64,000 nt of DNA, taken from assembly GCA_023819145.1 (NCBI GenBank), contig JAMWCW010000001.1, forward strand, positions 66,400-130,399. The letters are read 5' to 3'. The stretch is from Candidatus Omnitrophota bacterium. GTDB lineage: Bacteria > Omnitrophota > Gorgyraeia > DTHP01. Each line of letters begins with the position of its first letter. The first letter of the stretch is position 1. The notes below the pieces were generated by a model. It had not been told where the DNA came from. It made no database searches and saw nothing but the letters and a program-made list of their open reading frames with translations. A program made the translations under genes and the position numbers. Positions 2,211-30,439 of this stretch are shown here, one piece after another.

Positions 2211-2226
2211 TTTTCTTCCCTGAGAA

Positions 2227-2255: not shown

Positions 2256-2262
2256 GGGACAC

Positions 2263-2291: not shown

Positions 2292-2399
2292 TTAAACGAA
2301 ACTAAAATTCCTTTATCTAAGGATGCGGTAACTAATCTTTCCTTTAAGCTTAAATTTAGAACCCCTATAATTAAATACATAAAGAAGGTGTTTATACAA

Positions 2400-3785: not shown

Positions 3786-3793
3786 TAATGAGT

Positions 3794-3895
3794 CGTAATC
3801 CGTAAACCGTAATCGGTAATTTGTAATAAAAAATAACGAACTCAACGAAATAACCAACTAAACGAAAATAACGAAATTAACGAACACAACGAACA
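3794..3895. repeat. intergenic stuttered word array: 5 copies of NGTAAT, then about 7 copies of AACGAA
   Basis: The sequence reads cgtaat ccgtaa accgtaat cggtaat ttgtaat, then ataacgaac tcaacgaaa taaacgaaa ataacgaaa ttaacgaac acaacgaac. Confidence 0.6.
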
Positions 3896-3915
3896 AAATA
3901 TCATCAACGCAGCCC

Positions 3916-3944
3916 TTGACGATTTGCAAAAAGCGTGTTATATC
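3916..3944 (+). promoter_or_regulatory. promoter cccTTGACG-N17-TATATC (copy B), probable promoter of the 4188-18471 operon
   Basis: TTGACG at 3916-3921 and TATATC at 3939-3944. It is identical to copy A over 29 nt. Confidence 0.6.
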
Positions 3945-4187
3945 TTAATGTAGAAGAGAGGTACTTTATAAAACTTAAATTTCAATATCATAAATTAACT
4001 TTCTAGAATAAAAAGATGAGAGATTTTAATTATTTCTTTCTATTGGAAAGTGAAAAAATAGTTTCTCATTCTAAAGGGTATCAAGCCCTGATTAAAGCAT
4101 TGGAGCATGGTTTTGAAGGATTAGACAAGGAAATAGCCAAGAGGTTAATAAATTCCTATTTATATTTAAATGAAAGGAGGGAATGTA

Positions 4188-6611: not shown

Positions 6612-6644
6612 AAAATAAGATTTATTCTCGCAAAAGGAGGAATT

Positions 6645-8798
6645 ATGCGGATAAGCAATTTAGTAAGAGTTATTTTTATTTTCTTTTCTGTTCAATTTTC
6701 TCTCTTTTCTGGTGAACTCCGGAATGGAGTAATCTTAATTTCTCGTCGGGCTAAGAATCAAGAATTTTTAATAGTGTCTCCCTTTCAAAAATTACTCTCT
6801 CTTTTAGGAAACGGATTACAAACTGGTCTTAACTTTGATGAAGGGATAGAACTTTTTCGCCAGATAGAGAGATTGCGCTTGTCTGTGGAGGAAACAGAAG
6901 ATTTTTATTCTTTTATAGCGAATAATCTTGTTGATTTTTTGGTAGTTTCAGAAAGGTCAGGAATTAGAATTGACCTTCTTGATATTCGCGACCTTTTCTC
7001 GGCAGCACAGAACTATGCTTTGGGGATAAGAAGAGATGAGTTGGGATTAAATAGGGGAGGAAGGGCTCTTTTAAATAAGATGTTAAGTGTTAAAGATATA
7101 AAAATCATTGGTGAACAGCTTTTAGAAGCACTTGACTCCTCTTTTAACAATGGCAGGATTGATAAAGCTAATTACCTGAAATATAGAGAGCGTCTTGAAA
7201 TTATTACTCTGATGGCTGGACTCTGGGCAACTTCACCAGTGAGTTCTAAGAGTATGCTTAGAGCTTTAGAAGGAGGAAATACCGCCATTATGGCCGCAAA
7301 TACCCAGATGTCGGTAAGTATTCCCGGACTTATGCTTGCTTCTTTAGAATTTGGAGCTCCCCTTATGTTTGAATCGGCAATGAGTGAAGTCAACCTGCAA
7401 GACCCAAATGACCCTGCGAAAATAGCTATTGGTTATATCGGTAGAAATCCCCAGGAATTTGCGGAAGTAGTAAGATACTATGCCTTTCTTTTAGGTTACG
7501 ACCTGCCTTATGCCATTCATGCTGACCACACCACAGTAAGTAAAGATACAGCGGAGGCAATTGACTATGCTAAAAGACTTAATCAAGCACAATTATCTGC
7601 AGGATATACCTCTTTTGCTATTGATCCTTCATCTCTTCCCGCAGTGAGAGAAGATACCCAGTTAAAAACGCTCAATGCCATGGAGGTGGAAGAGTTCTTG
7701 AGGCTTGGTTTTGATGAAAGTTTAGCAAAAACTTTAGCCGCGCGAGAATTTAAAAAATTAAAAGAACTCTCTTCTATTGAAGGAATAGACGAGAGAAAGA
7801 TCAATATTCTGATGGACTATATTGAGTCACAGATTCTAGTTGCAGTTTTGAATAAAATGGGGTATGAAGATTTGATGAGCATTCCACGTATGCCTGGAAC
7901 TATTGCCCGTGCCATTGTAGAGAACGGTCCGTTTACTTCCTTGGAAGAGCTAAAAGAAATTGATGGGCTGGGTGATGATGATATTTTCTATATTGAGGGA
8001 ATAGACAATGCGGTTCTTTTGTTTGATTATTTAAAGGCTTACTTAGATTTAAAGCGGATTATTGAGATAAATATAGAATTAGCAAAATTTATTCCTGAAG
8101 AGTTTGGTTTAGAGGTGGAAGTTGGTCATATTGGAAGAGTTGATCCACTGACGGGAGAGGCGGTGATGACTACTCCTTTAGAAGCGGTAGTTTTGATTGA
8201 AGCATTACAAAGATTTGGGATAAAACCACAGCTTTTGGCGGTAAATAATGGAACAAAACACGGAATTGTCTTCATTGGGGGTAAAGAGGTTCCTACGACT
8301 GTAGATGTAAAAAGAACCGATGAAATAGCGAGCGCTATAAGACCTTTAGGAGTTTCCCTTGCTCAGCACGGAACTACTGGTACGCCTTTTGAGGTTATAA
8401 AAGATCAACTTGCGGGAAATATCCTTAAAGCCAATGTAGGAACCGAGTGGCGGAGAACTGTTTTAAGAAGCATGCCTTTGGATTTATTCTATAGAATGGT
8501 AGAGTGGACAGTGGAAGAAGAAAAAAGGAAAGCTCCAGAGAAATTTTCTGGACTTCTTCCGGTAAGAAGTTATACACGTGAACAACTGCTAAGTTCAGAG
8601 TGTCCTTACTATGCTTTAATTATTGATCCTATAAAACGGGCAATAGGAGTTTTTAGAGCTGAAATTGATAATATTTCTGGTGAGGATTTGGATTTAATTG
8701 TAGAAACAACCCGCGAAGTAGCAAGAGAGTATTTTACTGCTTTTAATGCTCTAGAGAAAGTTTGGAAGATTGTAAAGTATTTGGGTTGGGGATGGTGA
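6645..8798 (+). CDS. fba: class II fructose/ketose-bisphosphate aldolase-like protein with the leader, the RR motif and an inserted helix-hairpin-helix module
   Basis: The RBS is aggagg. Aldolase motifs are IHADHTT, GYTSFAIDPSSLP, VEVGHIG, NNGTKHG and QHGTTGTP. The insert near aa 345-455 has LKELSSIEGIDERK and LEELKEIDGLGDDD. The leader ends ILISRRAKN. Confidence 0.7.
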   Translation: MRISNLVRVIFIFFSVQFSLFSGELRNGVILISRRAKNQEFLIVSPFQKLLSLLGNGLQTGLNFDEGIELFRQIERLRLSVEETEDFYSFIANNLVDFLVVSERSGIRIDLLDIRDLFSAAQNYALGIRRDELGLNRGGRALLNKMLSVKDIKIIGEQLLEALDSSFNNGRIDKANYLKYRERLEIITLMAGLWATSPVSSKSMLRALEGGNTAIMAANTQMSVSIPGLMLASLEFGAPLMFESAMSEVNLQDPNDPAKIAIGYIGRNPQEFAEVVRYYAFLLGYDLPYAIHADHTTVSKDTAEAIDYAKRLNQAQLSAGYTSFAIDPSSLPAVREDTQLKTLNAMEVEEFLRLGFDESLAKTLAAREFKKLKELSSIEGIDERKINILMDYIESQILVAVLNKMGYEDLMSIPRMPGTIARAIVENGPFTSLEELKEIDGLGDDDIFYIEGIDNAVLLFDYLKAYLDLKRIIEINIELAKFIPEEFGLEVEVGHIGRVDPLTGEAVMTTPLEAVVLIEALQRFGIKPQLLAVNNGTKHGIVFIGGKEVPTTVDVKRTDEIASAIRPLGVSLAQHGTTGTPFEVIKDQLAGNILKANVGTEWRRTVLRSMPLDLFYRMVEWTVEEEKRKAPEKFSGLLPVRSYTREQLLSSECPYYALIIDPIKRAIGVFRAEIDNISGEDLDLIVETTREVAREYFTAFNALEKVWKIVKYLGWGW

Positions 8799-8868
8799 GA
8801 TCTTATAATTCTTCTTAGTAATTGAAGTTGTCTAAAAATTATTTGCTACTAAAGGAGGGATTGTAGAG

Positions 8869-10407
8869 ATGAGAAAAATATTTTTAGTTCTTTCTTTTTG
8901 TTTATTGTTTTTTCTATTTTGTCCTTTAAATTATAATTCTCAAGAATATTTTTCTTTCCGTAGAATTCATCGTAATCTTTTAATCACTGACCCACAACTT
9001 TTAGATGAGGCATATTTGTTGAATATCCTCCATATTGGGGGTGGATTGGGTTCCATTGTAGTCGATGCTCGTAGCGGAGAGCATATTGCGAGATTGAGTA
9101 TCTCTGGGAAAAGAATTATTAGTCGTGATGGTTTTAGCGTGCAGGATATTTTAAAAGGGATAGAAGAAGGGCGATTCGTTACTGTTACTCATCAAGAATT
9201 AGTTCAGAGGGCTCTTGAACATAGAGAGAATTGTGTGCTTGTCTTTACAGGTGGTGGAGATTCTGCGGGTATAAATGCAGTAATCAGTTCTGCAGTCCAA
9301 GGATTAAAGAAATTGAAACCAGAAATGACTGTTTTGGGTTTAAGAAACGCAGGAGCCAGTCTGGTGGTTTCTCCGGAAGAATTTCCCGAACATCTTGTTC
9401 TGATAGATGAATTATACGCTGAAGATGTTGCGGAACAGGGCAGTACTTTTTTGGGCTCTTCAAGGTATAATCCTTTTAAGAAAGCAGAAGATATGGCAAA
9501 GACTCTGGAAAACATAAAGGGTTTTGGAGCGTGGATTTCTACAGGAGGAGATGATAATCTTAAGGTTGCCCAGAGATTATCCCAGGAAAATCCGGAAATG
9601 GTGGTTTTGGCTACTGCCAAAACCATCGATGGTGATGTGATGGTTAATGGAAGAGGAGTGCAATGTTTGGGATTTGATTCAGCAGCGAAGATGTATCGGG
9701 ACGAAATTTATTCTATTGCCCAGAGTGCCAAAGCTCATGGAGAGAAAGAACAACCGCTGGTAATTGTGGTTGAGGTGTTTGGAAGGGATTCCGGAAGGTT
9801 GGCTTTTGAATCGGCGCGCCCCGATGACTTTTCCGGATTGAATGCGGAGGAAATTCGGAGACAAGTTGACCTTGCAGGAACGATAATGATCGTTGTTCCT
9901 GAGGAGAAACATGCTGACGGGACTCAAGCGACCATTGATGAATTAGTAAAAAGGGCAGAGGAAATTATTGCCCGCGAAAATGCAGTGGTAATAGTTGTTG
10001 CTGAAGGTTATCGGCCAGGAGATATGCCGGATATTGTAAAAACTTCTTCTAAAACAGATGCCTACGGACACGTTCAACTTGCCGGCATTGGTTCCGCGCT
10101 TGTTCCGGTTTTAGAAAAAAGAATTCCTAAAGCAAAAGTAAGAACCTCTCTTCTTAACTATGAAGGAAGGGGAACGCTTCCCAGCGAATACGATGTTACA
10201 TTGGGTTATAAGATTGGTTGGGAAATGGCTGAACTAATAGCCCAAGGAGTGACGGGTGGAAGGTTTGTAGGATATTTCAATGAAATGGATGCCCGTTTTG
10301 AACTGCCGGTGGTGCTGGAATTGGTGAATATCTCTAACCAGAATACCTTAGAGCTTTATCCCCGTCAAATATTAGAGAGGAATAGGGTTTTGGTGCTTGA
10401 TAGGTAA
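8869..10407 (+). CDS. pfk: phosphofructokinase, PPi-type by sequence determinants, with the leader and RR motif
   Basis: The RBS is aggaggg. Motifs are FTGGGDSAGINAVI, TGGDDN (Asp at the position equivalent to E. coli 104) and AKTIDGD (Lys at the position equivalent to 124). The leader is IFLVLSFCLLFFLFCPL...FSFRRIHR. Confidence 0.8.
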   Translation: MRKIFLVLSFCLLFFLFCPLNYNSQEYFSFRRIHRNLLITDPQLLDEAYLLNILHIGGGLGSIVVDARSGEHIARLSISGKRIISRDGFSVQDILKGIEEGRFVTVTHQELVQRALEHRENCVLVFTGGGDSAGINAVISSAVQGLKKLKPEMTVLGLRNAGASLVVSPEEFPEHLVLIDELYAEDVAEQGSTFLGSSRYNPFKKAEDMAKTLENIKGFGAWISTGGDDNLKVAQRLSQENPEMVVLATAKTIDGDVMVNGRGVQCLGFDSAAKMYRDEIYSIAQSAKAHGEKEQPLVIVVEVFGRDSGRLAFESARPDDFSGLNAEEIRRQVDLAGTIMIVVPEEKHADGTQATIDELVKRAEEIIARENAVVIVVAEGYRPGDMPDIVKTSSKTDAYGHVQLAGIGSALVPVLEKRIPKAKVRTSLLNYEGRGTLPSEYDVTLGYKIGWEMAELIAQGVTGGRFVGYFNEMDARFELPVVLELVNISNQNTLELYPRQILERNRVLVLDR

Positions 10408-10461
10408 AGAGATAACTTATTTTATTTGGCATTTTTAAAACAAATAGGTTTCTGAGTATTT

Positions 10462-11253
10462 GTGCGATATTTAATAATAAGAAAAATAGTAATTATTTTA
10501 TTTTTTTTGGCTCTTTCTCAGACAATAGTATTTTCTCCGGTGTATGCTCGCAGAGTGAAGTGGTTTGGGGGTGAGTTATCACTTCTTCAAGAAAATAATT
10601 TTTTTGTAGGGCTGGAAGATAGTTTGAAAGAGTTTGTTATTAAATTCGAGGATGCCAGAGTAATAAAATCTATCTCTCAGCCAGAGCCATTAGAAGGGGA
10701 TGCCCCTTTTGATTCCGGAGAAAAGATAGTTACCTATAAAATTGAGGTTTTGACAGATAAAGGGGTTAGCAGTTTAGTAGTGAAATTGGTAAGTAGCAGA
10801 GAAGCAAAAAATTTCTTAACTGCTTCTTTAAGGGGTGTTTCTCCAGGTCCAGCGATTTTTGTAGAACAGGGGTGGGAGAACAGAAATGGCGTTAGCGAAG
10901 GTTATTTAATCTATCGGTTCTTTGAAGGAGTGAAGTTAAGCGAAATTTGTAATCAGGAACAGGCAATTGATATCCTAAAGAATAATCTTTGGATTATTGA
11001 AGAATTAGGTATTAAACTTGCGAATTTAAAGAAAGCAGGGGTAAAATATAGAGATTTTTTATATTATAATACGCTTATTGATTTAGAAAAGAGAGCTCTT
11101 GTGATTGTTGATTACGGTGATAGGCATTGCGCTGATCCCTTTATTCAGGTAAGAGATTGGTGGTTGCCTTTGATGTTCAATACTGAACCCGAGATATTAG
11201 AGAAAGTTATTAGTTTATTTGTAGAAGTTTATCAGAGAGAATTAAATAATTAA
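10462..11253 (+). CDS. protein-kinase-like fold protein (RIO/Kdo/APH-like) with the leader and RR motif
   Basis: YRDFLYYNTLI resembles the HRD..N catalytic loop and IVDYGD resembles DFG. The start is GTG with a weak RBS. The leader is IVIILFFLALSQTIVFSPVYARRVKW. Confidence 0.45.
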   Translation: MRYLIIRKIVIILFFLALSQTIVFSPVYARRVKWFGGELSLLQENNFFVGLEDSLKEFVIKFEDARVIKSISQPEPLEGDAPFDSGEKIVTYKIEVLTDKGVSSLVVKLVSSREAKNFLTASLRGVSPGPAIFVEQGWENRNGVSEGYLIYRFFEGVKLSEICNQEQAIDILKNNLWIIEELGIKLANLKKAGVKYRDFLYYNTLIDLEKRALVIVDYGDRHCADPFIQVRDWWLPLMFNTEPEILEKVISLFVEVYQRELNN

Positions 11254-11325
11254 TGAGATTTGCTACTCTTAAAGAAATTATCTTGCGGCGAGAAATGATC
11301 ACAATTTTAAGGGGGAGGAAGTGAT

Positions 11326-13551
11326 ATGGGTATGAGGAAAATATTCATATTTTGTTTTATTCTCATAAAATTTGCCATCTTTTCATTTTCTTTTAATTTT
11401 TCCTCTTTAGAAATTATTGCGCATCGCAGAACTAAAATTTCTCCTTTAGTAGCAAATCATGAGTCTGTAAGGAAAGTTTTAGTAGATATTTTCTACAGAG
11501 CAGCAGGATTTCAAGGGGCTTTGCGCAGCGGAACAGCACAAGAACGGCGAGATATTTTAAACCAACCTGAGGTAAAGCGCGCTGTTTCTTTGCTCCAATA
11601 TGGTTTGAGTTTAGGAAGTACAACTTTAAGAAATCAAGTGGCTTATCTTGCTGAACGTTTAGGGATAAGCGCGAATCCCGCAGTAAATATTGGAATCTAT
11701 CAGGGAGAAGCCGAAATTTTTGATATTCTGGGAAATATCTTTATGCCTGAGGGAGATGGTTTAGTCTTTTATCAAAAAGGAACTGATAATCCCGAAACTC
11801 TTTTTAAGCCTTTTTTGGCTCGCTATGGAGCCAAAATATTTGAATTTGACCCTTACTTCGTAGAGCGCAATTCTACTCCCTCCTATTCTACAGAATTAAG
11901 CGGTTTTGAAGCGCTGATTTCTTTAGCTATTCAAGAGGGACAAAATCCGCGTTTTATCTATCTTAGCGGAAAAGGTTTAACCGAAGCGCAAGCAAGAAGA
12001 ATTTATGCTTTGGCAGAAACTTACAATCTTATAATTATTGAGGATATTACCAACGCAAACCCTACAGATTATCTACTTTCTGCAAACGATTCTCAAGGGA
12101 GAGTAATTTCCATCGGAAATTTTGACAAGTATTTAGGGGCTGCAAATCCTTTAAGTTATGCCATTGCGGGAGAAGAGATTATGCGTCTTATGGAAATTGC
12201 TATTGGCGGGATAAGTCTTCATCCCAATGCTTTTATTCAGCCGATAGTCTCGGAAATTTTAGCCCAAAACGGTATACCTTTCTCGGTAAATGTTTCCTAT
12301 AAACCCATCACTCTTTCTGAGAGTGTAAAAGCAATTCTTGCTTCAACAGGTGCAGACCAGCGCTTAAAACCCTCCATCATTAGAGAAATTCTTAAAGGGG
12401 CAGTTTCGGATATGGTGCGTATGGGAGGAGGGGTTCCTGCCGAGGAGTTCTTCCCTTATGTGGAAATTGCCCAGATTATAGAAAATATGAGCCCTGAGGA
12501 ATGGGAAAAGGTAATGGCTGGGGACCCGGCGATTAATTTAGAGTTGCGCAGTGTTTTTTGCCGGTGGCTTGAAGAAAGAGGAATAAAAGCTGACCCCCGT
12601 CAGGTTTTGGTAACCAATGGGAGCCAGCAGGGTTTGGATTTATTGGGAAGATGGGTGGGAAAAGAAGGAGTTGTTTTTGCCGAATCTCCTACCTATGTAG
12701 GAATGATTACGGGAGTTGCTCCTTACGGAGGCCTTCCTTATGGTAGAAATATTCGGCATTGGGATTTACGCACACTCACTGGATTAGAGAATTTAGAGAA
12801 AGAAATTGAAGAGAACTATCGAGGTAAAAAAATTGTTTTATATGTTACACCAAACTTTGGTAATCCTCCTTCAGGGAATATGTGGACGATTAGCGAAAGA
12901 AGGAATCTTCTGGCTTTTGCCCAGAGGATGCGCTTAAAGGGATACGATTTGCATATTGTAGAAGATGATCCTTATGGAGAACTAAATTATACTGGTCAAA
13001 GAATTGTAGATATCAAAGAGTTGGATACAAACGGAACAGTAATTTATTTCAACTCCAATTCCAAAGTCTTTTCTCCGGGAATGCGTGTGGGGTACATTGT
13101 GGCTGATGAGAAAATAATTCATGAATTTGCTTCTCTTATGGATGAAGTAGGTTCTTTTGTTCCTACACTCCCCCAACTTATTATTACTAAGTTTATCGAG
13201 ACAGGAGCGATGGATAGACATATTGAATTTTTGATTGGTGAATATTCAAAACGTGCACGGGCAATGGAAGAAGCTTTAGAGGAATTTATGCCTGAAGGTG
13301 TAACCTGGACAAAACCTGAGGGAGGGTTATTTATTACTTTAACTGTTCCCTGGGATATAGATTTTATGGCCATGCTTGAGGAGGCCAAAAATTACGCGAT
13401 TCCCTTTAACTTTGTTCCGGGTATCGCCTTTAGTGTGGATGGCTCAAGTGCTCATAAAATTCGTCTTTGCTTTTCCACAGAGTCTGAAGAAAGAATAACC
13501 TTAGGTATTAAGGCTTTTGCGGAGTTGATAAAAAAACACCTTGGCCAATAG
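11326..13551 (+). CDS. tandem class I/II PLP-dependent aminotransferase-fold protein with the leader and RR motif
   Basis: The second half has LVTNGSQQGLDLL, YVTPNFGNPPSG, IVEDDPYGEL and NSNSKVFSPGMRVGY (PLP Lys). The first half parallels it (IYQGEAEIFDIL, IIIEDIT, GNFDKYLGAANPLSY). The leader ends SSLEIIAHRRTKI. Confidence 0.75.
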   Translation: MGMRKIFIFCFILIKFAIFSFSFNFSSLEIIAHRRTKISPLVANHESVRKVLVDIFYRAAGFQGALRSGTAQERRDILNQPEVKRAVSLLQYGLSLGSTTLRNQVAYLAERLGISANPAVNIGIYQGEAEIFDILGNIFMPEGDGLVFYQKGTDNPETLFKPFLARYGAKIFEFDPYFVERNSTPSYSTELSGFEALISLAIQEGQNPRFIYLSGKGLTEAQARRIYALAETYNLIIIEDITNANPTDYLLSANDSQGRVISIGNFDKYLGAANPLSYAIAGEEIMRLMEIAIGGISLHPNAFIQPIVSEILAQNGIPFSVNVSYKPITLSESVKAILASTGADQRLKPSIIREILKGAVSDMVRMGGGVPAEEFFPYVEIAQIIENMSPEEWEKVMAGDPAINLELRSVFCRWLEERGIKADPRQVLVTNGSQQGLDLLGRWVGKEGVVFAESPTYVGMITGVAPYGGLPYGRNIRHWDLRTLTGLENLEKEIEENYRGKKIVLYVTPNFGNPPSGNMWTISERRNLLAFAQRMRLKGYDLHIVEDDPYGELNYTGQRIVDIKELDTNGTVIYFNSNSKVFSPGMRVGYIVADEKIIHEFASLMDEVGSFVPTLPQLIITKFIETGAMDRHIEFLIGEYSKRARAMEEALEEFMPEGVTWTKPEGGLFITLTVPWDIDFMAMLEEAKNYAIPFNFVPGIAFSVDGSSAHKIRLCFSTESEERITLGIKAFAELIKKHLGQ

Positions 13552-13608
13552 ATTTTTTTGTAATATTTATATCTCCCTTTGGTTATAGATAATAGGGGGG
13601 CGAGAAAG

Positions 13609-14769
13609 ATGAAGAAATACTTAAGAATTAGAGGGATATTTATTTTAGTAGTATTTGTAGTATTTTTATTTACGCTTTTGATTCCTGTAAAACATTCCTT
13701 GGCTTATCCCAGGAGTTATCCTTATTTAGTTTCTAATTCATTACCAGCTTTTTCCGCGCGAGGGTTTAATGAAGCGCTCTTAGCGCGAGTTTTGCGCGAG
13801 ATTATCATTATCTATAAATTCTTGGCTCAAATCGAAAGGGTTCTTAATGAAAGAGGAGAAAATGATTTTCCATCTTTAGGTAGGGTCATCGGAGACAGAC
13901 CTCAGGAGAGAGAAAATTCCCAAAATACTCCCCCCAAAAGAAGTAATTTAAGGGAAGAACCTGCGGGTAACCGTCATCTAGACCCAGAAAATCCTTCGGC
14001 AAAACTACCAGAAGGGTCATCTTCGTCACCTGCTGGTTCTCTAGGAAAGATAAAGATTGCGATTATTGATATTGACTCTAAGCACGCCGCAGAAGTAAAG
14101 GCGGTAATGGAAGAGACAATTCGGCGTAAGAATCCCGGGGCAAAAGTAGAAATTCGTACCATTATTCTTCCTGGCAAATGGCAAAGGGATGGTTCTAAAG
14201 CGGTGGCTACCAGTGATATTTTAGACGCTTTTGCAGAAGCCAAAGCTTGGGGCGCAAAGGTAATCAATATGAGTATTGGTGCACAAGGAGGTGTAGACGG
14301 TATAGTGCTTAGTGCCTTACGCGACCTTTCTGAAAGTGGCATTCTGGTAGTAGCGGCATCAGGTAATGAAGGTAGTTATGATGCTTGGGGGCAAGCTGGC
14401 CGATATGTCTTATCAGTGGGGGTAAGAGGTGCACCTTATTCCAATACCGCTGATTTATATGTCGATTGGGGAGAGCTTCCACCTGGATTAGAAGGCACAT
14501 CTTTTGCTGCTCCGATTATTGCTGCGGAAGCGGCTTTAGCCTGGTTAGAAAACCCTTCCCTTAACTTGGCAAGTTTGCCTTCTCAATTAGGTTCACGGGA
14601 CACAGTTTATGCCCGGAGTAATCCTCCGCAAAGAAGTTCGCAGGGGTTTCACACTTCGGCAATAGAGTTTGTAAGGCCACCTGTTGTTTTTTATACGCCG
14701 GTGGAAGAAATGCCTTTTTACGAACAGAGTTTTTATTCGCCTGTTGGCTGTTTTCCGTCTTTTTGGTAA
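13609..14769 (+). CDS. membrane-anchored S8 subtilisin-like serine peptidase
   Basis: Motifs are IAIIDID (Asp), SKHAAEV (putative His), VINMSIG, VVAASGNEGS (oxyanion Asn) and GTSFAAPIIAAE (Ser). The N-terminal helix is IFILVVFVVFLFTLLI. AYPRSY occupies the position where neighbouring genes have RR. Confidence 0.7.
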   Translation: MKKYLRIRGIFILVVFVVFLFTLLIPVKHSLAYPRSYPYLVSNSLPAFSARGFNEALLARVLREIIIIYKFLAQIERVLNERGENDFPSLGRVIGDRPQERENSQNTPPKRSNLREEPAGNRHLDPENPSAKLPEGSSSSPAGSLGKIKIAIIDIDSKHAAEVKAVMEETIRRKNPGAKVEIRTIILPGKWQRDGSKAVATSDILDAFAEAKAWGAKVINMSIGAQGGVDGIVLSALRDLSESGILVVAASGNEGSYDAWGQAGRYVLSVGVRGAPYSNTADLYVDWGELPPGLEGTSFAAPIIAAEAALAWLENPSLNLASLPSQLGSRDTVYARSNPPQRSSQGFHTSAIEFVRPPVVFYTPVEEMPFYEQSFYSPVGCFPSFW

Positions 14770-14876
14770 TTTTTGTTTGTTTTCTTCTAAATAAAGGGGA
14801 CACTTACTACCGACTCTTCATTGGTTGTAAGAAAGTAAAAGATATTAAACTTGAATTCCGAGGAGGTATTATATAA

Positions 14877-16064
14877 ATGAAAAATAGTAGAGGAAAGATT
14901 TATGTTATGTTTTTGGGTTTGTTATTTTTCTTTCTTAACTCATTATTATATTTAGACTTATCTGCGGGATGCTCTTTCCGGCGAATCAAAACTCAACCTG
15001 CCAAAGAATCTGCGCTGGTGCTTTTTTTCCACGAATTAGGTAGAGAAGATATTTTTTTAGTGGGAGGAAAAGGGGCAAATTTGGGAGAACTTTCGCATAT
15101 TGCCGGGATAAGCGTTCCCGAGGGGTTTGTAGTTACCACCACCGCTTTTCAAAAATTTTTAGATGCCAACCCTGGATTACAAGATAAAATTATCAGGATT
15201 ATAAATAGTATAGATTGGGATACCCCTTCCAGTATAAACTCTGCTGCGGAAAAGATAAAAGAAGCGGTTTTGCGTGCGAACATGCCGCGAGAGATTATTG
15301 AGATGATTAAAGCAGGTTATGGCCATTTAGAAGAGATCTCCGGAATAAAGGATGTGCCCTGTGCTGTAAGAAGTTCGGGAGTTGCTGAGGATTCTCCTAA
15401 CTTTTCTTGGGCAGGTCAATTCCGCACTGAATTAAATCAGAGGGGAATATATCAGGTTTTAGAGGCGGTTAAATTAATCTGGGCAGAGTTGTATAATCCT
15501 GATGCCCTTACCTATGGACATCAGAATGGTATCGACCCGCGCAAATTTTCTATGGGAGTGGTAATTCAGCGGATGATAAATTCAGAGAAATCAGGAGTGG
15601 CTTTTGGACTGGAGTCCGATACAGGTTTTCGTGCCAATCCCGGAGGAATGGAAGGAGTTTTTTATATTGAAGGGGTTTATGGTTTAGGTGAAGGGATGGT
15701 GCAAAATATTCAAGAACCTGATGGATTTTTGGTAGTAAAGATGCCTAATGGTGAATTTAAAATTATTGAACGCATTTTCGGTTCCAAAAGAGAACAGATA
15801 GTTTATCGGTCTGGAATGAGTGGGACAGAGAAAACTTCGGTTCCCGAAGAATGGCGTCAGAGATGGGTTTTTTCAGAAGCAGAGGTGTTAGAGATTGCTC
15901 GTGCAGTTTTTGCCTTAAATAGCCACTATAATCATCCCCAGGATGTAGAATTTGCCTGGGAAGGAGGAAAACTATACATATTACAATCACGCAATGAGAC
16001 AGTTCATGCAGATAAACCAGTAGATTTAATTGAATGGAGAAAGTTTAGAATTAACCTTAAATGA
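14877..16064 (+). CDS. PEP synthase (pyruvate, water dikinase) N-terminal ATP-grasp module as a separate polypeptide, with the leader and RR motif
   Basis: VGGKGANLGELS is the PPDK_N signature. The protein ends after the nucleotide-binding domain. The leader is VMFLGLLFFFLNSLLYLDLSAGCSFRRIKTQP. Confidence 0.75.
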   Translation: MKNSRGKIYVMFLGLLFFFLNSLLYLDLSAGCSFRRIKTQPAKESALVLFFHELGREDIFLVGGKGANLGELSHIAGISVPEGFVVTTTAFQKFLDANPGLQDKIIRIINSIDWDTPSSINSAAEKIKEAVLRANMPREIIEMIKAGYGHLEEISGIKDVPCAVRSSGVAEDSPNFSWAGQFRTELNQRGIYQVLEAVKLIWAELYNPDALTYGHQNGIDPRKFSMGVVIQRMINSEKSGVAFGLESDTGFRANPGGMEGVFYIEGVYGLGEGMVQNIQEPDGFLVVKMPNGEFKIIERIFGSKREQIVYRSGMSGTEKTSVPEEWRQRWVFSEAEVLEIARAVFALNSHYNHPQDVEFAWEGGKLYILQSRNETVHADKPVDLIEWRKFRINLK

Positions 16065-16083
16065 AAAAAGGGGGAGATAAATA

Positions 16084-18471
16084 ATGAAGTGGTTACATGT
16101 TAAAATTTTTTGGAGTATTGCCTTTTTAATTATTGCCAGCCTACTTTATGTTGATAATCTTTTTATGTTTTCTTCTTTAGATTTTATTACAAGAAGAGTA
16201 TTAACTCCTTCTTATACAGATTCTCCTTCGGTTGAGGTTCCCTCCGGTTCTCCTAAAATAATTGCCCGTGGAGAAGGGGTAGGTGCTAAAGGAGCGGGGG
16301 TAGGACGAGTGGTTATCATTGATGAAAATAGTTCCATCCCTATTCGTGAGCAGGCAATGCGTGTGCGCGAAGGAGATGTACTTGTTGCTTATCGCACCGA
16401 TCCTTCTTTGGTGGATGCCATGCGCCGAGCAGGTTTGGTGATTACTGAAATTGGAGGGAAAAATTCTCATGCTGCGATTGTCGCTAGAGAATTTAATTTA
16501 AATGCGGTTATTGGTGTGCCCAATGCTACGCGTATTTTTGCTCAAGGGCAGGTAGTTACTGTTGATGCTGAGCATGGAGTCATTTATGCTGGAGCTTTGC
16601 CGCTTGAAGAAGATAGTGTTTCCTATCGCGTGAGTGAACTTCCGTCTACGAGCCCTGTAAAGATAGGGATACTTTCCTTTGATACTGCTCGGGTGAGAGC
16701 GATGTTTCCTTTGGGTTTGTATTCTGATTTTTACGGTATAGGGCTGATGCGTGCAGAGTTTGCTTTACAAAATATTGGCATCCATCCGTTAGCAATATTG
16801 GATTTTGATAGAGGTACGCTTAGAGATGCAAGGCTACAAACAGAAATTACGCAAAAAATCAAAGGCTATGCGAGTGCGCGAGACTATTACATCTCAAAAC
16901 TTTCTTCTGCAATATTTTCCAATTCGCTTATTCTACATGAGGGGCAAAAGGTTATTTACCGCACCACTGATTTTAAAACCAACGAATATGAAGATATGTT
17001 AGGAGGGGATGTTTACGAGCATAAAGAGCCCAACCCCATGATGGGCAATCGCGGTTTACAGCGAATGATTAGTCCTGAATACCGGGAAGCATTTGATATG
17101 GAACTCGAAGCATTTTTACTTGCCTGGAAAGATAATCCGGGAAAGATTTCTATCATGGTTCCTATGGTACGCACTCCCCAAGACCTTCTGACTTTTCGTC
17201 AAATTCTTGAGGGAAAAATAAGGAGTATGGGGCTCTCGGGTATGCCTGAGGTAGTAATGATGTATGAATTGCCCGCGAATGTTTTTCAGATAGAGGAATT
17301 TATTCACGCCGGTATAAATGGTATTTCCATTGGTTCAAATGACCTGACACAATTTATTCTGGCAGTAGACAGGGACAGTGGTTTATTTAGAGAAGGAGGT
17401 AGAGAAGAATATGATGCCGTAAATAGAGCAGTATTGCGTGCTATCGGCATCGGTATAACTTCTTCTAAAGCCCGCGGTGTAAAAACAGGTATTTGTGGGC
17501 AAGCGCCATCAGACCATCCAGATGTTTATCCTGCAATTCTTACTGCTTTAGGAATAGATTCTATAAGTGTTACTCCCGATGTGTTTCATAAAGTGGTAGA
17601 AGCAGTAGCCCAAGCACAACAAAATCCTTCTTTTGGGATGAGATACCTTTCGGGTTTAGATTTATTTTTAGGCTACGATACCCAGACTAATCCCAAACGA
17701 GAATTAAAGAAGATAATTAGTTCTGATGATATACTTCGGAGTATTGGCATTCATCCTTTAGCCTTACTTGCCTTTGACCGGGGAAGTAGTTTATTGAGTG
17801 ATACGGCGATAAGTAGGCAGATTGTTTCTTTTGCCGGAGAAGAAACTGCAGAACGGGCTTACTTTGACCGTGTATATAGGGCGGTAAAGAATGCTTTACT
17901 TATGGATGGAGAGGTAGTTTATAGAACAGGAAGTTTGCTCAGTACCGATTATAAAACGCTTGTGGGAGGAGATATTTTTGAAAAAGAAGAAGCAAATCCC
18001 TTATTGGGTGCGTTTGGAATGTACCGCCTGCTCAGATATGGTTCAGAAGATGGCGCTTTGAGTATGCGTGATATTTTTAACATAGAGATGGATGCAGTTT
18101 TAAAAGCTGTGCGGGATACCGGTAAAGTTATTCATTTAGAGTTAGATATGGTGCGCACTTTTGGAGAATTACAGGAGGCAGTTTCTGTGATTAATGAGGC
18201 AATACGCCGTACAGGGATTTCTCCAGATAAGGTGAAAATTGGTCTAAATGTTTCTACTCCGGCAAATGTTCTGCTTATTTCTGATTTTATTAACCAAGGG
18301 AGATTAAGTTTTGTGAGTATCGACGAAAAAAGGTTAGCCTGTTATCTTTTGGGGGTGGATTCCTTGAGTATGGTTAGCCCCGAGGCTATTGAACGAGCCC
18401 TATATATACCTCGTCAACTGGTTTATACAGCATTAGCTCAAAAGGGAATCCCTTTAGTTAACTCCCCCTAA
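16084..18471 (+). CDS. PEP synthase phospho-His swivel domain, an intact PEP/pyruvate TIM barrel and a degenerate second barrel, with the leader and RR motif
   Basis: Motifs are GGKNSHAAIVAREFNLNAVIGV, GLMRAEF, NPMMGNRG, GSNDLTQ and CGQAPSD. Residues 545-795 repeat the barrel with lost motifs (NPLLGAFG, SIDEKRLAC). The leader ends LDFITRRVLTP. Confidence 0.8.
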   Translation: MKWLHVKIFWSIAFLIIASLLYVDNLFMFSSLDFITRRVLTPSYTDSPSVEVPSGSPKIIARGEGVGAKGAGVGRVVIIDENSSIPIREQAMRVREGDVLVAYRTDPSLVDAMRRAGLVITEIGGKNSHAAIVAREFNLNAVIGVPNATRIFAQGQVVTVDAEHGVIYAGALPLEEDSVSYRVSELPSTSPVKIGILSFDTARVRAMFPLGLYSDFYGIGLMRAEFALQNIGIHPLAILDFDRGTLRDARLQTEITQKIKGYASARDYYISKLSSAIFSNSLILHEGQKVIYRTTDFKTNEYEDMLGGDVYEHKEPNPMMGNRGLQRMISPEYREAFDMELEAFLLAWKDNPGKISIMVPMVRTPQDLLTFRQILEGKIRSMGLSGMPEVVMMYELPANVFQIEEFIHAGINGISIGSNDLTQFILAVDRDSGLFREGGREEYDAVNRAVLRAIGIGITSSKARGVKTGICGQAPSDHPDVYPAILTALGIDSISVTPDVFHKVVEAVAQAQQNPSFGMRYLSGLDLFLGYDTQTNPKRELKKIISSDDILRSIGIHPLALLAFDRGSSLLSDTAISRQIVSFAGEETAERAYFDRVYRAVKNALLMDGEVVYRTGSLLSTDYKTLVGGDIFEKEEANPLLGAFGMYRLLRYGSEDGALSMRDIFNIEMDAVLKAVRDTGKVIHLELDMVRTFGELQEAVSVINEAIRRTGISPDKVKIGLNVSTPANVLLISDFINQGRLSFVSIDEKRLACYLLGVDSLSMVSPEAIERALYIPRQLVYTALAQKGIPLVNSP

Positions 18472-18480
18472 CCGGGAAAA

Positions 18481-18580
18481 ACCGACCCCACCTCGTAGGT
18501 GTCCTTTTCACTGTATTGTAAGTTGTTTTTATATGGATACTTATGTGGGACGATTTTGGCCACCTACGAGGTGGGCACGG
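18481..18580. repeat. REP-like inverted-repeat pair 1
   Basis: ACCGACCCCACCTCGTAGGTGTCC at 18481-18504 faces GGCCACCTACGAGGTGGGCACGG at 18558-18580. The cores are exact reverse complements (CCACCTCGTAGGTG and CACCTACGAGGTGG). Confidence 0.75.
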
Positions 18581-18948
18581 TTAGTTTTGGTTTGGGTGTG
18601 GGTTGAGGAAAGTAGATTTTGGGTTGAGGAGTTAGATTAAGGAAAAATAAAAAACAGAATAGAATGTTTTGAGGTGTAAAGAAAGTTTACCCCCACAATG
18701 ATAGAAGATGTCAGTGTAAGTAGATATTTATCAGTAACTTATGGATAGATGCTCTTAGAATGTAATTTTAATTTACTTTCTTATTTGCCTTATGAAAAAA
18801 GGAGGAAGATAAATTTTCTTGTTTTATAGTCGGAAAAATCTGTCTTTGGTGATTATCTAATATTCTGGCATAAATTTTGCTTACTCTAGTAACAGAAAAA
18901 ATGTCAGAATTAAAAATTGAAATAAGAAAATTTTTACCATCTCTGCCA

Positions 18949-18977
18949 TTGACGATAAGAGAAAGATGTGATATAAT
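18949..18977 (+). promoter_or_regulatory. promoter TTGACG-N17-TATAAT upstream of the 1378-aa gene
   Basis: TTGACG at 18949-18954, a 17-nt spacer ending in tgtga, TATAAT at 18972-18977. Confidence 0.55.
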
Positions 18978-19001
18978 TTATATAGAGAATAATAATAAAT
19001 A

Positions 19002-22000
19002 ATGAATAAAATAATAAAAATGATAAATATGGAAAAGAAGAGAAAATATATTCTTATCTTTTTGGGACTATTTTTGCTTATTAGTGCCTATGTAGAGGCA
19101 AAGGTGCGTACTCAAGTAATTCGCAATAGCCCCGTCCCGGAAAGAAATGTGGGAATTATTCCTGAGGCGCGTTCGGTAGAAGACTGGGCACGGGTGAGAA
19201 CTCAGGTTATAAAAGAAACAGAAAGGAGAAACCGTCAAATAGAGACCAGCCAGAATCTTCCCGATAAAATGGAAGATAGCCGGAGAGAGACAGAAGAGGA
19301 ACGCCTCAAATCCGCTTACAAAATAGAAAAAGATGCTCGGGAGATGAAACAAAAAATAGAGCAGGCTTCTCCCAATGAGGTGGTAGGAGAAAATCCCGAT
19401 GGGACAAAATGGTATCAATACTCAGGAAGATTTGACATCTTCAAGAACTGGATAAAAAACAAACTCAAAGAACTTGGCCTCTTGGATAAATGGAAGGGTG
19501 AAAGTTTTGAGGAATTAGTTCAAAAATATGGTAAAACCAATTTTGACCTCACCTTCAACAAAAAATCTTGGTCTTATTTTGGTAAGCGCTCCTCGACTCT
19601 GCAAACCACAGAATTTCAATTTAGTTTAACCAATCCCGAAGATAATTTTGAAAAATATATTCAGACGCGCTCGCGTCAATTAATCTGGGATAGCGCCAAT
19701 AATCGCGAGGCAGAAATTGTGCAACATACTATAACCGATGAGATAGAATGGGCAGGTAAGTTCTATGGCACGCCGGGAAAAACCGAACAAGGAAGGCAGA
19801 TGCTTTCTTCTCGCCAGAGAACTTGGGATGAGACCAGGGGAACTTATTCTGAGGTAAACCAGAGAAATGTCTATGAAGGGAATTTCCATATGCCCATTAA
19901 GACCATCCGCAAGGTCTTTGAATCGGGCTACGATACTAAAGGCAATTACTATGAACGCCGATACGAGATGACCCGTGAGAATATTGAATGGGCGTGGGTT
20001 GTTTCAAGTGACCCAATTTCTGGCGGAAGTTATGAAACAAAGAGCTTTGACCAGACGATGATTGATTATTCCACGCCTGATAAAAAGACAATTTCCCACC
20101 ATGAGTTTACTTATACTGATGATGGAGTTCCGGAAAGTCAATTGATTGTTAGCCGAGAAGTTGGTTTAGGGCTAAATCATATTTCAGTAAGTTTAGAAAG
20201 ATATCTTGACTACTACAAAGATGGTTCTTTGCGCCAAGGACTGAGTCTTGATCTCACTGGTGATTTTCCTGACGTATATACCGCCGTAAAAGAAGGAAGA
20301 ACTTTACAGAATTTAATCAATAATAAAGAAACAAAGTCGCAAATCGAAGCACAGTTGGGACGCAGTTTAAACTTGAACAATCCTCAAGATTTAAAAATCT
20401 ATACCGCTTATCTGAGGGAAGGATTGGGGGAAACAGCAAGAAAAATCAGTTTGAGTTTTGCCGAGAAGAAACACAATGACAAAGCATTCCTTGCCTGGGA
20501 AAAAGAGACAGTTGCCATTGAAGGAAAAGATGAAAATGGGAGCCTGATTAGTTCTAGCAGTGAAATAGAAAAAACTTATACCCAGTTCTTACCCTTTGGT
20601 CAACCCACAGAGATTGAGCAACTGATAAGAAGCGAAGCCACACCAAATGTAGAAACAAAATTAAAGATTTCTTTAAAATACAACAAGTATTGTCAGGTAA
20701 CTGAACAGAGAACCGAAACGCGAGAAACAAGCCTTGATGGCAAACTTAATAAACACACGATAAGCATAAAAGATAAAATTGTTTACAATGGTTTAGGACA
20801 GGAAATTTCCTATCGTGAGCGAGAAGAAGAATATGATATAGATGGAAAGCGCATTGGCAATCGTGAAACTTTAGTAAAAAATATTACCTATAATGAAGAT
20901 GGCTTGCAGACCGGTTACGAGATGCAGAGCATAACCAGAGGAATTGATACTCATGATGGAAGTATTTTTGAGATAATTACTGAAACAAAAGTGCGCGATA
21001 TCCGATATAATGAATTGGATATGCGTATATCCTGGAAGGAGATAAGTATAGATTTAAGCAGAAGCCCGGGATTAATTAGTGAGAGAATGTATCAGGTAAA
21101 GGCAATAGATGAATTTGGAAGAATTACGGAGATAGATATAAAAGAACACACTTATGGCACTGCTTCCGATGGAACCTCTCTAAATACTGAACGCACCATT
21201 AACCGCAAGATAAAATACAACTCTTTAGGTCAGGAAGAAGAGGCAATTGAGGAGGTAATTGAGAAGGCAAAGACCACTATCTCAACCATTAAATATGCCT
21301 ATGACCAGTATGGGAGAATTTCGCGCGAAGAAAGAAAAGTGCATGTAACGGGGAAAGATGGAGATAGCGAATTGGACTATACTTATACTCTATTGCGCTA
21401 TGGATTTGAGTACAATGATGCAGGACTTCTACAGAGATATAAGGCTAAAATCCGGAATGAATCTACAGCCGATATAGAAATAACTCAGGAGGTAGAGATT
21501 GGCTATGACAGTCTGGGAAGAGTAGATTATCAGAAGACTCAAGTCTGGGAAGATACGCGAAGCGGAGATAAGGCCTTACACAAATACACACTTACCGTAA
21601 GGGAAAACATTACCTATAATGAATTAGGATTAGAGACAGCTTATACTGAAACAGAGGAGGAATTTGATGAAGATGGAAAACGCATTGGCAATCGTAAGGT
21701 TAAGGTAAGTAACATTACTTATAATGAAGATGGTTTGCAGACTGGTTATGACATGGCGGTAATAGTAGAAGGGACTGATACCCATGACGGAAGTAGTTTT
21801 GAAACCTTTACCGAGATTAAAGTGCGCGATATTCGTTACAACAATTTAGGCATCCGCATTAGTTGGAGAGAAACCACCATAGATACAAGTAGGAGTCCAG
21901 GATTAACTACCGAAAGAAAATACGCGGTTACAGAGATAGATAGGTTTGGTAGACCTATAGAGCTTATAATCAATGAGCATGCTTATGGCTCTGCTTCTGA

Positions 22001-30377: not shown

Positions 30378-30439
30378 TTTATAACGGTAGGAAAAGGAAG
30401 GAAGAAGAGGAAAGGTAAGTGAGAGGAGGAAAGAGGGAG

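Follow-up and report, generated by a model that had tools for sequence, protein, structure and literature searches.

A compact S8 subtilase among RR-tagged enzymes of an Omnitrophota bacterium, a candidate processing protease

In a window of 64,000 nucleotides from a Candidatus Omnitrophota bacterium (the whole stretch of DNA that was analysed), eleven proteins carry a hydrophobic leader followed by two arginines, the leader-RR tag. The only gene of the operon without this tag, as the initial annotation had noticed and a leader census confirms, encodes a subtilase of family S8 (S8 hereafter), which reads AYPRSY at the corresponding position and has leader genes on both sides. The question that this locus raises is whether S8 processes the RR tag of its neighbours. 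The leader genes were said to begin at 3916, whereas the census puts the first of them at 287; those upstream of S8 (287 to 13551) were assigned by the leader census and by Pfam and NCBIfam matches. The two halves of PPDK are encoded separately in the window, while in locus L004 PPDK is a single fused protein of 1154 aa with one leader.

287-1210, + strand: leader-RR methyltransferase
1362-2276, - strand: leader-RR protein of 304 aa, unknown
2271-3785, + strand: leader-RR PGK
4170-6611, + strand: leader-RR GAPDH
6645-8798, + strand: leader-RR FBA
8869-10407, + strand: leader-RR PFK
10462-11253, + strand: leader-RR kinase-like protein
11326-13551, + strand: leader-RR aminotransferase
13609-14769, + strand: compact S8 subtilase gene, 386 aa, stop codon included
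14877-16064, + strand: leader-RR PPDK, N-terminal half with its own leader
16084-18471, + strand: leader-RR PEP-utilizer half of PPDK, with its own leader
60162-61886, + strand: leader-RR asparaginase-like protein, a distant eleventh, reading ...DICFA-RR-IPS

The open reading frame of S8 runs from 13579 or 13609 to 14769 on the + strand, and the start at 13609 given initially is right, because AGGGGGG precedes this ATG and all homologues begin with MKK, MRK or MNK. The product is 100% identical to the NCBI entry 'S8 family serine peptidase [Candidatus Omnitrophica bacterium]'. It matches Pfam PF00082 above the cutoff (E 3.9e-10, 40 bits vs 21.8), over profile positions 89-175 only, and in phmmer alignments with PDB sequences its GTSFAAP pairs with GTSMATP and its AASGNEG with AAAGNSG. 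In Foldseek the best match of the S8 model is subtilisin BPN' (E 1.6e-8). The protein is thus an S8 subtilase with the subtilisin alpha/beta fold, in agreement with its first assignment.

14044-14592, + strand: catalytic core aa 146-328, a subtilisin fold without the Asp-His loop and strand 2
14068-14085, + strand: Asp154-Ile-Asp156-Ser-Lys-His159, catalytic Asp and His 5 residues apart (alignments, AF2)
14365-14370, + strand: oxyanion-hole Asn253 and Glu254, corresponding to BPN' N155 and E156 (hhalign vs BPN')
14500-14502, + strand: catalytic Ser298 in GTSFAAP (phmmer, hhalign, MAFFT)

All four motifs named initially are present, and their catalytic codons could be located: Asp154 in IAIIDID (14068-14070), His159 in SKHAAEV (14083-14085), Asn253 in AASGNEG (14365-14367) and Ser298 in GTSFAAP (14500-14502). 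These four residues are unchanged in 9/9 relatives (alignments A1 and A2), and in a MAFFT alignment with BPN' and with intermediate compact forms, which retain the HG motif, they share columns with D32, H64, N155 and S221. Asp156, between the catalytic Asp and His, is invariant in both A1 and A2 and specific to the compact family, and residue 254 is Glu or Asp in every relative, acidic like E156 of BPN'. The close spacing of the putative catalytic His, about 5 residues past the Asp, is borne out as well: compared with BPN', 25-28 columns are missing in the MAFFT alignment, leaving D-x4-H. The segment of some 30 or more residues with strand 2 that usually separates Asp and His in S8 proteases is absent from both the alignment and the AF2 model, in which a strand (148-154) is followed by no strand at 154-157 and then by a helix (157-174); the core is modelled with pLDDT mostly 83-96. 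In this model His159 would lie at the N-terminal end of the helix, as it does in subtilisin.

Such a short link could mean that the triad cannot form and that S8 is a non-catalytic pseudoprotease. The spacing of 5 residues is unmatched among the solved subtilases retrieved, and there is a weak match to the model of the pseudoprotease CspC (15 bits vs a cutoff of 675). However, the four catalytic residues are invariant over lineages of 35-60% identity, and related compact forms with spacings of 6, 8 and 13 keep the arrangement. In subtilisin, moreover, the Asp ends strand 1 and the His starts helix C, and as the two are neighbours in space, a short link between them is feasible. I therefore find a pseudoprotease hardly credible; judged by these alignments S8 is probably a catalytically competent, active protease. 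The missing segment is a variant feature that leaves the S8 membership standing, and the compact form, with D-x4-H and a core of ~180 aa, is a new variant of subtilase. In the Omnitrophota literature consulted, no description of this protease, or of the RR leader, was found.

13609-13704, + strand: N-terminal signal peptide or anchor aa 1-32, MKKYLRIRG...HSLA↓YP (AF2, charge, homologues)
13756-13854, + strand: conserved helix aa 50-82 at the usual place of a prodomain (AF2 pLDDT ~60, alignment A1)
13855-14043, + strand: disordered, poorly conserved linker aa 83-145 (pLDDT ~31-34)
14593-14766, + strand: C-terminal tail aa 329-386, predicted disordered, ending ...SFYSPVGCFPSFW
30419/30440-30838, + strand: stand-alone Fervidolysin-N-pro-like lipoprotein (PF22148 E 2e-16, lipobox)

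Outside the core, S8 starts with a conserved pattern of the Sec type (an MKK n-region, an h-region and S-L-A↓Y), modelled by AF2 as a helix at 2-28, with an N flank charge of +4. Small residues at -1 and -3 are kept in the homologues ([S/I/V]-[F/L]-A↓Y), resembling a site for signal peptidase I. As a whole the N-terminus resembles a Sec signal peptide, which may be removed by cleavage; of the claim that S8 is membrane-anchored, the hydrophobic N-terminus stands, while the conserved signal-peptidase-I-like site makes the anchoring uncertain. No prodomain is recognisable in cis, as had been stated: Pfam gives no match to I9/Inhibitor_I9 or to anything else in aa 1-145, the helix at 50-82 included, and AF2 shows a lone helix followed by disorder. 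The linker varies in length and is much longer in P0010, P0011 and the L149 protein. The tail ends in SP..P..[FILV]W-COOH, which is common to P0002, P0003, P0005, P0006, P0010, P0011, the L149 protein and the distant P0013. S-A-R-G at about aa 48-51 was considered as a pseudo-substrate or autoprocessing site and rejected, as it is not kept in P0003, P0005 and P0006.

With a dibasic motif in the leaders, no prodomain in S8 and a prodomain-like lipoprotein elsewhere in the window, S8 could be a dibasic convertase of the kexin/furin type (S8B), served in trans by the lipoprotein at 30419 as chaperone or inhibitor. The lipoprotein does exist, with both its PF22148 match and its lipobox. However, it lies 15.6 kb from S8 behind an IS200-like gene and heads an efflux cluster (OEP, HlyD and two RND genes come next); in other genomes the 10 kb on either side of S8 hold none of its homologues, and it was rejected as a trans prodomain. 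Dedicated subtilases without any prodomain are also known, PatA being an example. As to the enzyme itself, the kexin P (homo-B) domain is absent: PF00082 is the only Pfam match, and disorder is predicted for the tail at aa 329-386. Structural comparison does not single out furin as a neighbour of S8, and the profiles show no preferential similarity and no family match to kexins. Candidates for acidic S1, S2 and S4 pockets were mapped by sequence alignment: Asp156 and Glu/Asp254 are conserved, while Asp258 is replaced by Ser in P0011 and in the protein of L149, and as its BPN' equivalent differs between the MAFFT and the hhalign alignment, an acidic S1 pocket by way of Asp258 was discarded. In furin, the acidic residue close to the catalytic Asp is Asp154, to which Asp156 of the compact S8 can be likened. 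Kexin/furin membership is largely refuted, and the convertase with a trans prodomain is very unlikely.

The tag itself is found in 34 proteins across independent assemblies, a pattern far beyond chance. After the hydrophobic segment the consensus is RR[V/I][K/R] with invariant RR, or more fully [S/I/L]-[L/A/F]-R-R-[V/I]-[K/R], and its enzyme carriers include PGK, GAPDH, FBA, PFK, PPDK, FBPase and others. In 34/34 leaders the RR stands ~12 residues past the h-region, which is ~16 aa long on average, and the mean charges are +2.4 for the N flank and +1.4 for the C flank. The twin-arginine of a Tat signal (S/T-R-R-x-F-L-K) belongs before the hydrophobic region, not after it, and a Tat signal was dismissed for this reason. 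The leaders are predicted to be N-in and of the export type, which would put the RR on the trans side, the same side on which an exported S8 would act. In the AF2 model of PFK, residues 17-37, including R31 and R32, have a pLDDT <50 and the fold begins at ~41; the RR of PFK is thus predicted to sit in an exposed, disordered linker.

From these elements the following route can be proposed. S8, transcribed within the leader-RR operon, would be exported via Sec as a minimal subtilase with its core on a long flexible linker, and the leader-bearing enzymes would pass through the cytoplasmic membrane or become inserted in it. By limited proteolysis S8 would then cut their exposed linker at or next to [S/I/L]-[L/A/F]-R-R-[V/I]-[K/R], and this cut would free the enzymes from a signal-like anchor that cannot otherwise be cleaved. 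That S8 is the processing enzyme of the RR-tagged proteins I regard as the most likely of its possible roles, although one with less than an even chance. The related idea that S8 is shielded from self-cleavage by its own lack of RR finds no support, as all ordinary secreted proteins of the window lack RR too.

How S8 and the leader are distributed bears directly on this proposal. The S8 family counts 5 clusters at E <1e-30 (among 1.84 billion representatives), and a metagenome scan gives at least 2 true members; the leader-type PFK family is similarly narrow, with 9 clusters, all of the Omnitrophota type. In 8/8 distinct loci S8 is located at the 3' end of a string of leader-RR genes, with the leaders directly seen in five (the window, L001, L003, L004 and L010), as contig ends cut the upstream ORFs in L006, L013 and L149. 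The gap between the upstream gene and S8 is 55-102 bp in six loci, 163 bp in L004 and 236 bp in L010. The co-occurrence of the two, proposed at the outset as a check, is upheld in part: S8 and the leader are restricted to the same narrow Omnitrophota clade, and leader-bearing genes adjoin S8 wherever the flank is readable. However, the leader operons of L007 (JGI 3300033149), L008 (GCA_964562345.1) and L072 (Ca. Saelkia tenebricola), which are Saelkia-type, have no S8 within 10 kb. They retain RR, with hydrogenase genes coming next, and neither protein search gave an additional S8-family member from these assemblies; L007 falls inside the divergence range of the S8-bearing lineages. P0013, a distant relative of the same architecture, adjoins signal peptidase I at a locus without RR proteins, where GAPDH is normal and leaderless.

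These exceptions could be taken to mean that S8 is a general housekeeping or nutritional protease of the periplasm or surface, and that the RR is never cleaved, being a topogenic, retention or receptor signal that could, for instance, hold the enzymes on the membrane. More distant compact S8s with short spacing indeed occur outside a leader context (P0013, P0015, P0017 and P0124), lineages without S8 keep the RR motif, and a preprint on Omnitrophota takes metabolic enzyme domains as membrane-anchored (10.64898/2026.06.07.730766). Yet the clade with D-x4-H has a very narrow distribution and strict synteny, which points to a dedicated role, and it is invariably RR, not any K/R, that is kept, which points to specific recognition by a protein. 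The flank charges moreover disfavour an N-out/C-in anchor with the RR as its positive-inside signal, as positive charge is higher on the N flank. A general protease next to an uncleaved RR is unlikely.

18489-18501, + strand: terminator-like hairpin just past the last leader gene (consensus scan only)
18949-18977, + strand: sigma-70-like promoter TTGACG-17-TATAAT with TG extension, the best in 10000-19200
19002-23138, + strand: w19002, secreted repeat protein of 1378 aa without Pfam family, candidate substrate

Alternatively, S8 might mature the downstream protein w19002, and perhaps w23396 too, so that its location at the 3' end of the leader genes would be positional and it would be without RR for being an ordinary Sec substrate. 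In five loci, L001, L003, L006, L013 and L149, the gene right after S8 encodes a homologue of w19002 (39-74% identity), and both families are tiny, at 7 clusters for w19002 and 5-8 for S8, with the same phyletic pattern in the same set of assemblies. The leader operons without S8 lack w19002 also. As the N-termini of both proteins look like classical signal peptides, they would share a compartment. However, in the window w19002 is two genes away from S8, with two leader genes, the hairpin and the strong promoter in between, and this promoter suggests that gene 19002 is a transcription unit of its own. Three of the five directly adjacent loci have gaps of 348-528 bp. In JGI sample 3300045950, S8 stands with leader genes (L004) and the homologue of w19002 sits on a different contig with unrelated neighbours; the two contigs match in composition, with GC contents of 44.1% and 43.5% and a tetranucleotide r of 0.93. 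A conserved motif that could serve as a cleavage site was not found in w19002. That its maturation is the task of S8 is conceivable, if somewhat doubtful.

Returning to the processing of the RR leader, this proposal is favoured by the operon position of S8, by the clade-restricted co-occurrence and by a family as narrow as that of the leader-type PFK; the predicted same-side topology and the exposed RR linker speak for it as well. Weaker hints are the profile matches, with PagA and PatA at the top, the invariant Asp156 and the acidic residue 254. It is undermined by the leader operons without a nearby S8 and by the comparable linkage of w19002 to S8. The lack of specificity features of the kexin type and the P0013 locus also count against it, and the export of ATP- and NAD-dependent glycolytic enzymes would be biologically awkward; should the enzyme domains remain in the cytoplasm, an exported S8 would have no access to the RR. 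A bolder form, which I consider rather improbable, is that one Omnitrophota clade has a protein-sorting route not described before, with S8 as its dedicated maturase. In this route a whole set of glycolytic and gluconeogenic enzymes would be exported by the leader and clipped at RR[V/I][K/R], in an arrangement like that of PEXEL/TEXEL, and would end up in a host, at the cell surface or in an extracytoplasmic compartment. The module of a hydrophobic helix plus an enzyme might also underlie the giant 'multi-enzyme' proteins of the phylum, for which roughly one TM helix is predicted per 1000 aa.

If S8 removes the RR leader, a short motif together with a single small enzyme would make it possible to approach by experiment a sorting signal borne by a complete set of enzymes that are normally cytoplasmic, in uncultured nanobacteria that are probably host-dependent, and the final location of these enzymes would alter the reading of Omnitrophota cell biology and metabolism. 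Should S8 instead serve to mature w19002, it would be an accessory protease of an ordinary kind, and its interest would be modest. In addition, a subtilase can evidently retain all its catalytic residues with 4 residues between Asp and His and a core of ~180 aa, which is relevant to protease evolution and engineering.

With classical subtilisins (S8A, BPN'/E), S8 has in common the D-H-S order, the oxyanion Asn, GTS(M/F)A(S/A)P and GNEG. It differs from them in lacking ~27 residues between Asp and His (strand 2) and the I9 prodomain, in a core of ~180 aa instead of 275, and in two additions, a linker that is long and disordered and a conserved tail that ends in Trp. With kexin/furin (S8B) and the kexin-like ASP of the bacterium Aeromonas it shares the S8 core, and a dibasic motif is the proposed target here too. 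SphB1/FhaB and MycP/EspB, like S8 and w19002, pair an exported or membrane-tethered subtilase with a very large secreted protein; in contrast to these systems, genes for type VII or two-partner secretion are absent from the neighbourhood of S8, and w19002 belongs to no recognised family. The mycosin model (TIGR03921) gives S8 only 37 bits vs a cutoff of 278.75, and no ESX genes are among the window ORFs.

The best profile matches among solved structures are PagA (E 2e-15) and PatA (2e-14), with subtilisins at 1e-13. The cyanobactin leader proteases PatA/PagA and the leader-peptide subtilases LanP, NisP, EpiP and QhpE resemble S8 in having no classical prodomain, and they share an operon with their leader-bearing targets, as proposed for S8. 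However, their targets are small RiPP precursors and they are cytoplasmic, whereas the candidate targets of S8 are whole enzymes of 260-800 aa and S8 is predicted to be exported. S8 falls far below the family cutoffs of PatA/PatG (TIGR03895, 30.2 bits vs 421) and QhpE (NF049966, 19.8 bits vs 165); no qhp genes are nearby, and nothing usable on Asp-His spacing was found in the QhpE literature. A likeness in architecture to the leader-RR tag is offered by the host-targeting PEXEL/TEXEL signals of Apicomplexa, in which a signal-like hydrophobic segment is followed 10-20 residues later by a short Arg motif (RRLxx in TEXEL). These signals are read on the trans side and cut by dedicated membrane-associated proteases, plasmepsin V and ASP5. 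Those proteases are aspartic and eukaryotic, whereas the compact S8 is a bacterial serine protease, with a glycolytic enzyme set as its candidate cargo.

The gene of the S8 subtilase (window 13579/13609-14769, + strand) has a Shine-Dalgarno-like run, AGGGGGG, ahead of the ATG at 13609, and this start agrees with the MKK, MRK or MNK of all homologues. Its 386-aa product is 100% identical to the NCBI entry 'S8 family serine peptidase [Candidatus Omnitrophica bacterium]', encoded on a contig of 221 kb. The Pfam Peptidase_S8 match (E 3.9e-10, 40 bits against a cutoff of 21.8) covers profile positions 89-175 only, and in a sequence search against the PDB GTSFAAP pairs with GTSMATP and AASGNEG with AAAGNSG, in agreement with the initial annotation, which had recognised a subtilase by these motifs among others. 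The best profile matches are the leader peptidases PagA and PatA, and the NCBIfam matches to mycosin, PatA, QhpE and CspC all lie far below threshold. In family terms S8 is simply a divergent S8A-like subtilase, an unusually compact and new form of a known kind of enzyme.

Six sequences went into an AF2 model whose confident part is residues 148-326 (pLDDT mostly 83-96); its further parts are:

aa 2-28, N-terminal hydrophobic helix
aa 50-82, lone helix
aa 83-145, disordered linker
aa 329-386, disordered C-terminal tail

Neither an I9 prodomain nor a P-domain is found in S8 by Pfam or in the model; the former bears out the earlier statement that an N-terminal prodomain is missing, while the latter defeats the kexin/furin analogy as a matter of family membership. 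Asp154, Asp156, His159, Asn253 and Ser298 are invariant among the six closest S8 proteins, in an eight-member core alignment to which P0010 and P0011 were added, and in an extra member at locus L149. The Asp/His region was left unaligned by pairwise profile methods; in a MAFFT alignment that takes in more distant compact S8 proteins with the HG motif (P0013 DYFGFNGH, P0017 DSTYSNH, P0124 DSTYDRH), D154/H159/N253/S298 share invariant columns with D32/H64/N155/S221 of BPN', with an Asp-to-His gap of 25-28 columns relative to BPN'. In the model, strand 148-154 runs straight into helix 157-174, which has His159 at its N-terminal end; the two elements match strand 1 and helix C in subtilisin, whose strand 2 is missing in S8. 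The proposed Asp, His, Asn and Ser, and the Asp-His spacing of about 5 residues, are thus upheld, and because the residues are invariant and aligned with those of BPN' and the modelled topology fits, the enzyme is very probably active.

In eleven proteins of the window, RR follows a hydrophobic segment at the N-terminus: a methyltransferase, a 304-aa unknown protein, PGK, GAPDH, class II FBA, PFK, a Bud32-like protein, an aminotransferase, both halves of a split PPDK and an asparaginase-like protein. In this way a near-complete enzyme set of the glycolysis/gluconeogenesis type (window 287-18471 and 60162-61886) is tagged with the leader and an invariant RR[V/I][K/R]. Many tagged enzymes have an additional N-terminal domain of 100-400 aa (GAPDH 813 aa, FBA 717 aa, aminotransferase 741 aa). 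Automatic detection gave 34 leader-RR proteins in the window and related loci, and with two added by hand the motif is [S/I/L]-[L/A/F/S]-R-R-[V/I/A]-[K/R/H], located about 12 residues beyond an h-region of on average 16 aa. Positive charge is higher on the N flank than on the C flank (+2.4 against +1.4), which by the positive-inside rule predicts an N-in, export-type orientation and not an N-out cytoplasmic anchor. A Tat signal is excluded, as RR comes after the hydrophobic region, and so is a standard signal peptidase I site at RR, since about half of the proteins have Leu or Phe at position -1. AF2 modelling of the PFK with its leader gives pLDDT <50 for residues 17-37, R31 and R32 among them, and a fold that begins near residue 41, which places the motif in a predicted exposed linker.

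The PPDK of the window consists of two ORFs (14877-16064 and 16084-18471), each with its own leader-RR, whereas its orthologue in L004 (3945-7409, 65% identical) is one fused protein of 1154 aa that has only one leader, so the leader behaves like a targeting signal per polypeptide. The closest leaderless relatives of the leader-type PFK (L073-L093) belong to Altiarchaeota and to the CPR bacteria Gracilibacteria, Peribacteria and Peregrinibacteria, a hint that this PFK type was transferred horizontally or arose in an unusual way. In the Omnitrophota literature searched, the leader is undescribed.

The S8 family is as narrow as that of w19002, a secreted repeat protein encoded nearby (seven clusters, from the same assemblies). 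A word-indexed search of 5.8 billion proteins returned five relatives (35-60% identity), and when 1.84 billion cluster representatives were scanned exhaustively with HMMER, only five of the 39,145 generic S8 matches had E <=1e-30, after which the scores fall directly to 5e-25; no new lineage appeared among the matches listed from the metagenome scan. All members have IDIDxxHA and a C-terminal tail ending in SP..P..[FILV]W; this tail (window 14593-14766; P0002-P0013) matches no family model and may be a sorting or docking signal. It is also present in the distant relative P0013, which is built from the same parts in the same order (signal peptide, helix, linker, compact core, Trp tail), with a core 34% identical to S8 and D-x7-H spacing. 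The P0013 gene (L011 9324-11188) lies directly downstream of a signal peptidase I gene (S26, Peptidase_S26), in a 21-kb locus without RR leaders and with a normal GAPDH of 340 aa, so that the short Asp-His spacing pre-dates, or exists outside, the leader system. P0010 (L010 8867-10666, 599 aa) carries in its N-terminal region a degenerate partial duplicate of the S8-domain start (IRVAIIANDEKEFSAVNAAV...), without the catalytic Asp and His.

Eight distinct S8 loci were recovered.

Gene order at the S8 loci
Window: ...aminotransferase, S8, PPDK_N, PEP-utilizer
L001/L002/L014: 1069-aa protein (SLRRAKD), 270-aa protein (CLRRIRL), S8, w19002-like, second large protein (window 23396-like)
L003/L069: 801-aa protein, FBA, PFK, aminotransferase, kinase-like (all RR), S8, w19002-like
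L004/L005: enolase, FBPase_3 (AEARRVKG), PPDK (TFRRIKS), small leader proteins, S8, ParE module
L006: FBA C-terminus, S8, w19002-like
L010/L015: FBPase_3, PPDK, HEAT protein (all RR), S8, contig end
L013: HEAT, S8, w19002-like
L149: fragment, S8, w19002-like

S8 is therefore always located at the border of a run of leader genes and, in most cases, the gene of a large secreted protein. I tentatively propose that S8 is exported as a dedicated processing protease of the leader-RR proteins and would cut the exposed linker at or beside RR, because it belongs to the operon, is the only untagged member there, shares the clade restriction of the leader, is predicted on the same side of the membrane as an accessible motif, and mildly resembles the leader peptidases PagA and PatA. 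Processing of the RR tag, as first suggested, is retained in this weaker form, without its kexin-like mechanism. Protection of S8 from self-cleavage is an unnecessary assumption: S8 itself and the ordinary secreted proteins and lipoproteins 19002, 23396, 30419 and 54698 all have N-termini of the classical signal-peptide pattern, without RR.

The main rival, which I regard as only slightly less likely, is that S8 matures w19002 (window 19002-23138, + strand). A w19002 homologue follows S8 in five other loci, and a 23396 homologue in L001. The gap from S8 to its upstream gene is 55-102 bp in six loci; before w19002 it measures 348-528 bp at three loci and about 80 bp at two others. In the window, the operon is set apart from gene 19002 by a terminator-like hairpin (18489-18501) and, 5' of 19002, by the region's best promoter-like site (18949-18977, 11/12 matches plus a TG extension), both by consensus match only. 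In JGI 3300045950, the contigs of S8 (L004) and w19002 (L148) are alike in composition (GC 44.1% vs 43.5%, tetranucleotide r = 0.93) and the neighbours of the two genes are unrelated; in this lineage S8 is kept with leader genes, not with w19002. Neither large secreted protein matches a Pfam family; by eye, 19002-23138 (1378 aa) has YD/Rhs-like repeats, and 23396-29443 (2015 aa) a stretch of poly-Gly and a C-terminus that is acidic and helical.

The leader operons of L007, L008/L071 and L072 (Ca. Saelkia tenebricola), with the order GAPDH-PFK-PEP-utilizer and then hydrogenase genes, have no S8 within 10 kb, and no S8 or w19002 member from these assemblies was among the matches listed in the database searches. 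As the L007 GAPDH is 52% identical to that of the window and the S8-bearing L010 is more distant (PPDK 33%), the absence, if real and not due to MAG incompleteness, would represent loss within the clade, with the RR motif kept without S8. That S8 is a general exported protease and the RR signal stays uncleaved seems to me unlikely.

The suggestion that a stand-alone prodomain lipoprotein (window 30419/30440-30838, + strand; PF22148) acts on S8 in trans finds no support in genomic context: it sits behind an IS200-like gene at the head of an OEP-HlyD-RND-RND cluster, and no homologue occurs near S8 at other loci. The IS200/Y1-transposase-like gene (29623-30276, PF01797 E 3.8e-8) separates the large secreted proteins from this cluster. 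The AcrB-type RND pump at 35496-39026 extends about 130 residues past the ACR_tran match (aa 1045-1176), in a tail resembling by eye a helix-turn-helix or winged-helix domain. Apart from 1362-2276, the + strand carries all large ORFs of window 1-64000, an extreme co-orientation, and each 2-kb bin has positive GC skew, so the window lies wholly on the leading strand of one replichore.

Giant 'multi-enzyme metabolic' proteins of Omnitrophota, reported to average one predicted TM helix in roughly 1000 aa (147 in 147,155 aa; bioRxiv 10.64898/2026.06.07.730766), might be concatenated leader-plus-enzyme modules that are separate genes here. The most striking biology is the leader, as a whole glycolytic set is predicted to be exported, and S8 offers the most obvious experimental entry point. 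The function proposed for S8 would be new, if true. Apicomplexan parasites combine a signal sequence with a PEXEL/TEXEL motif, and this arrangement is the closest functional analogue of the proposed leader-RR processing.
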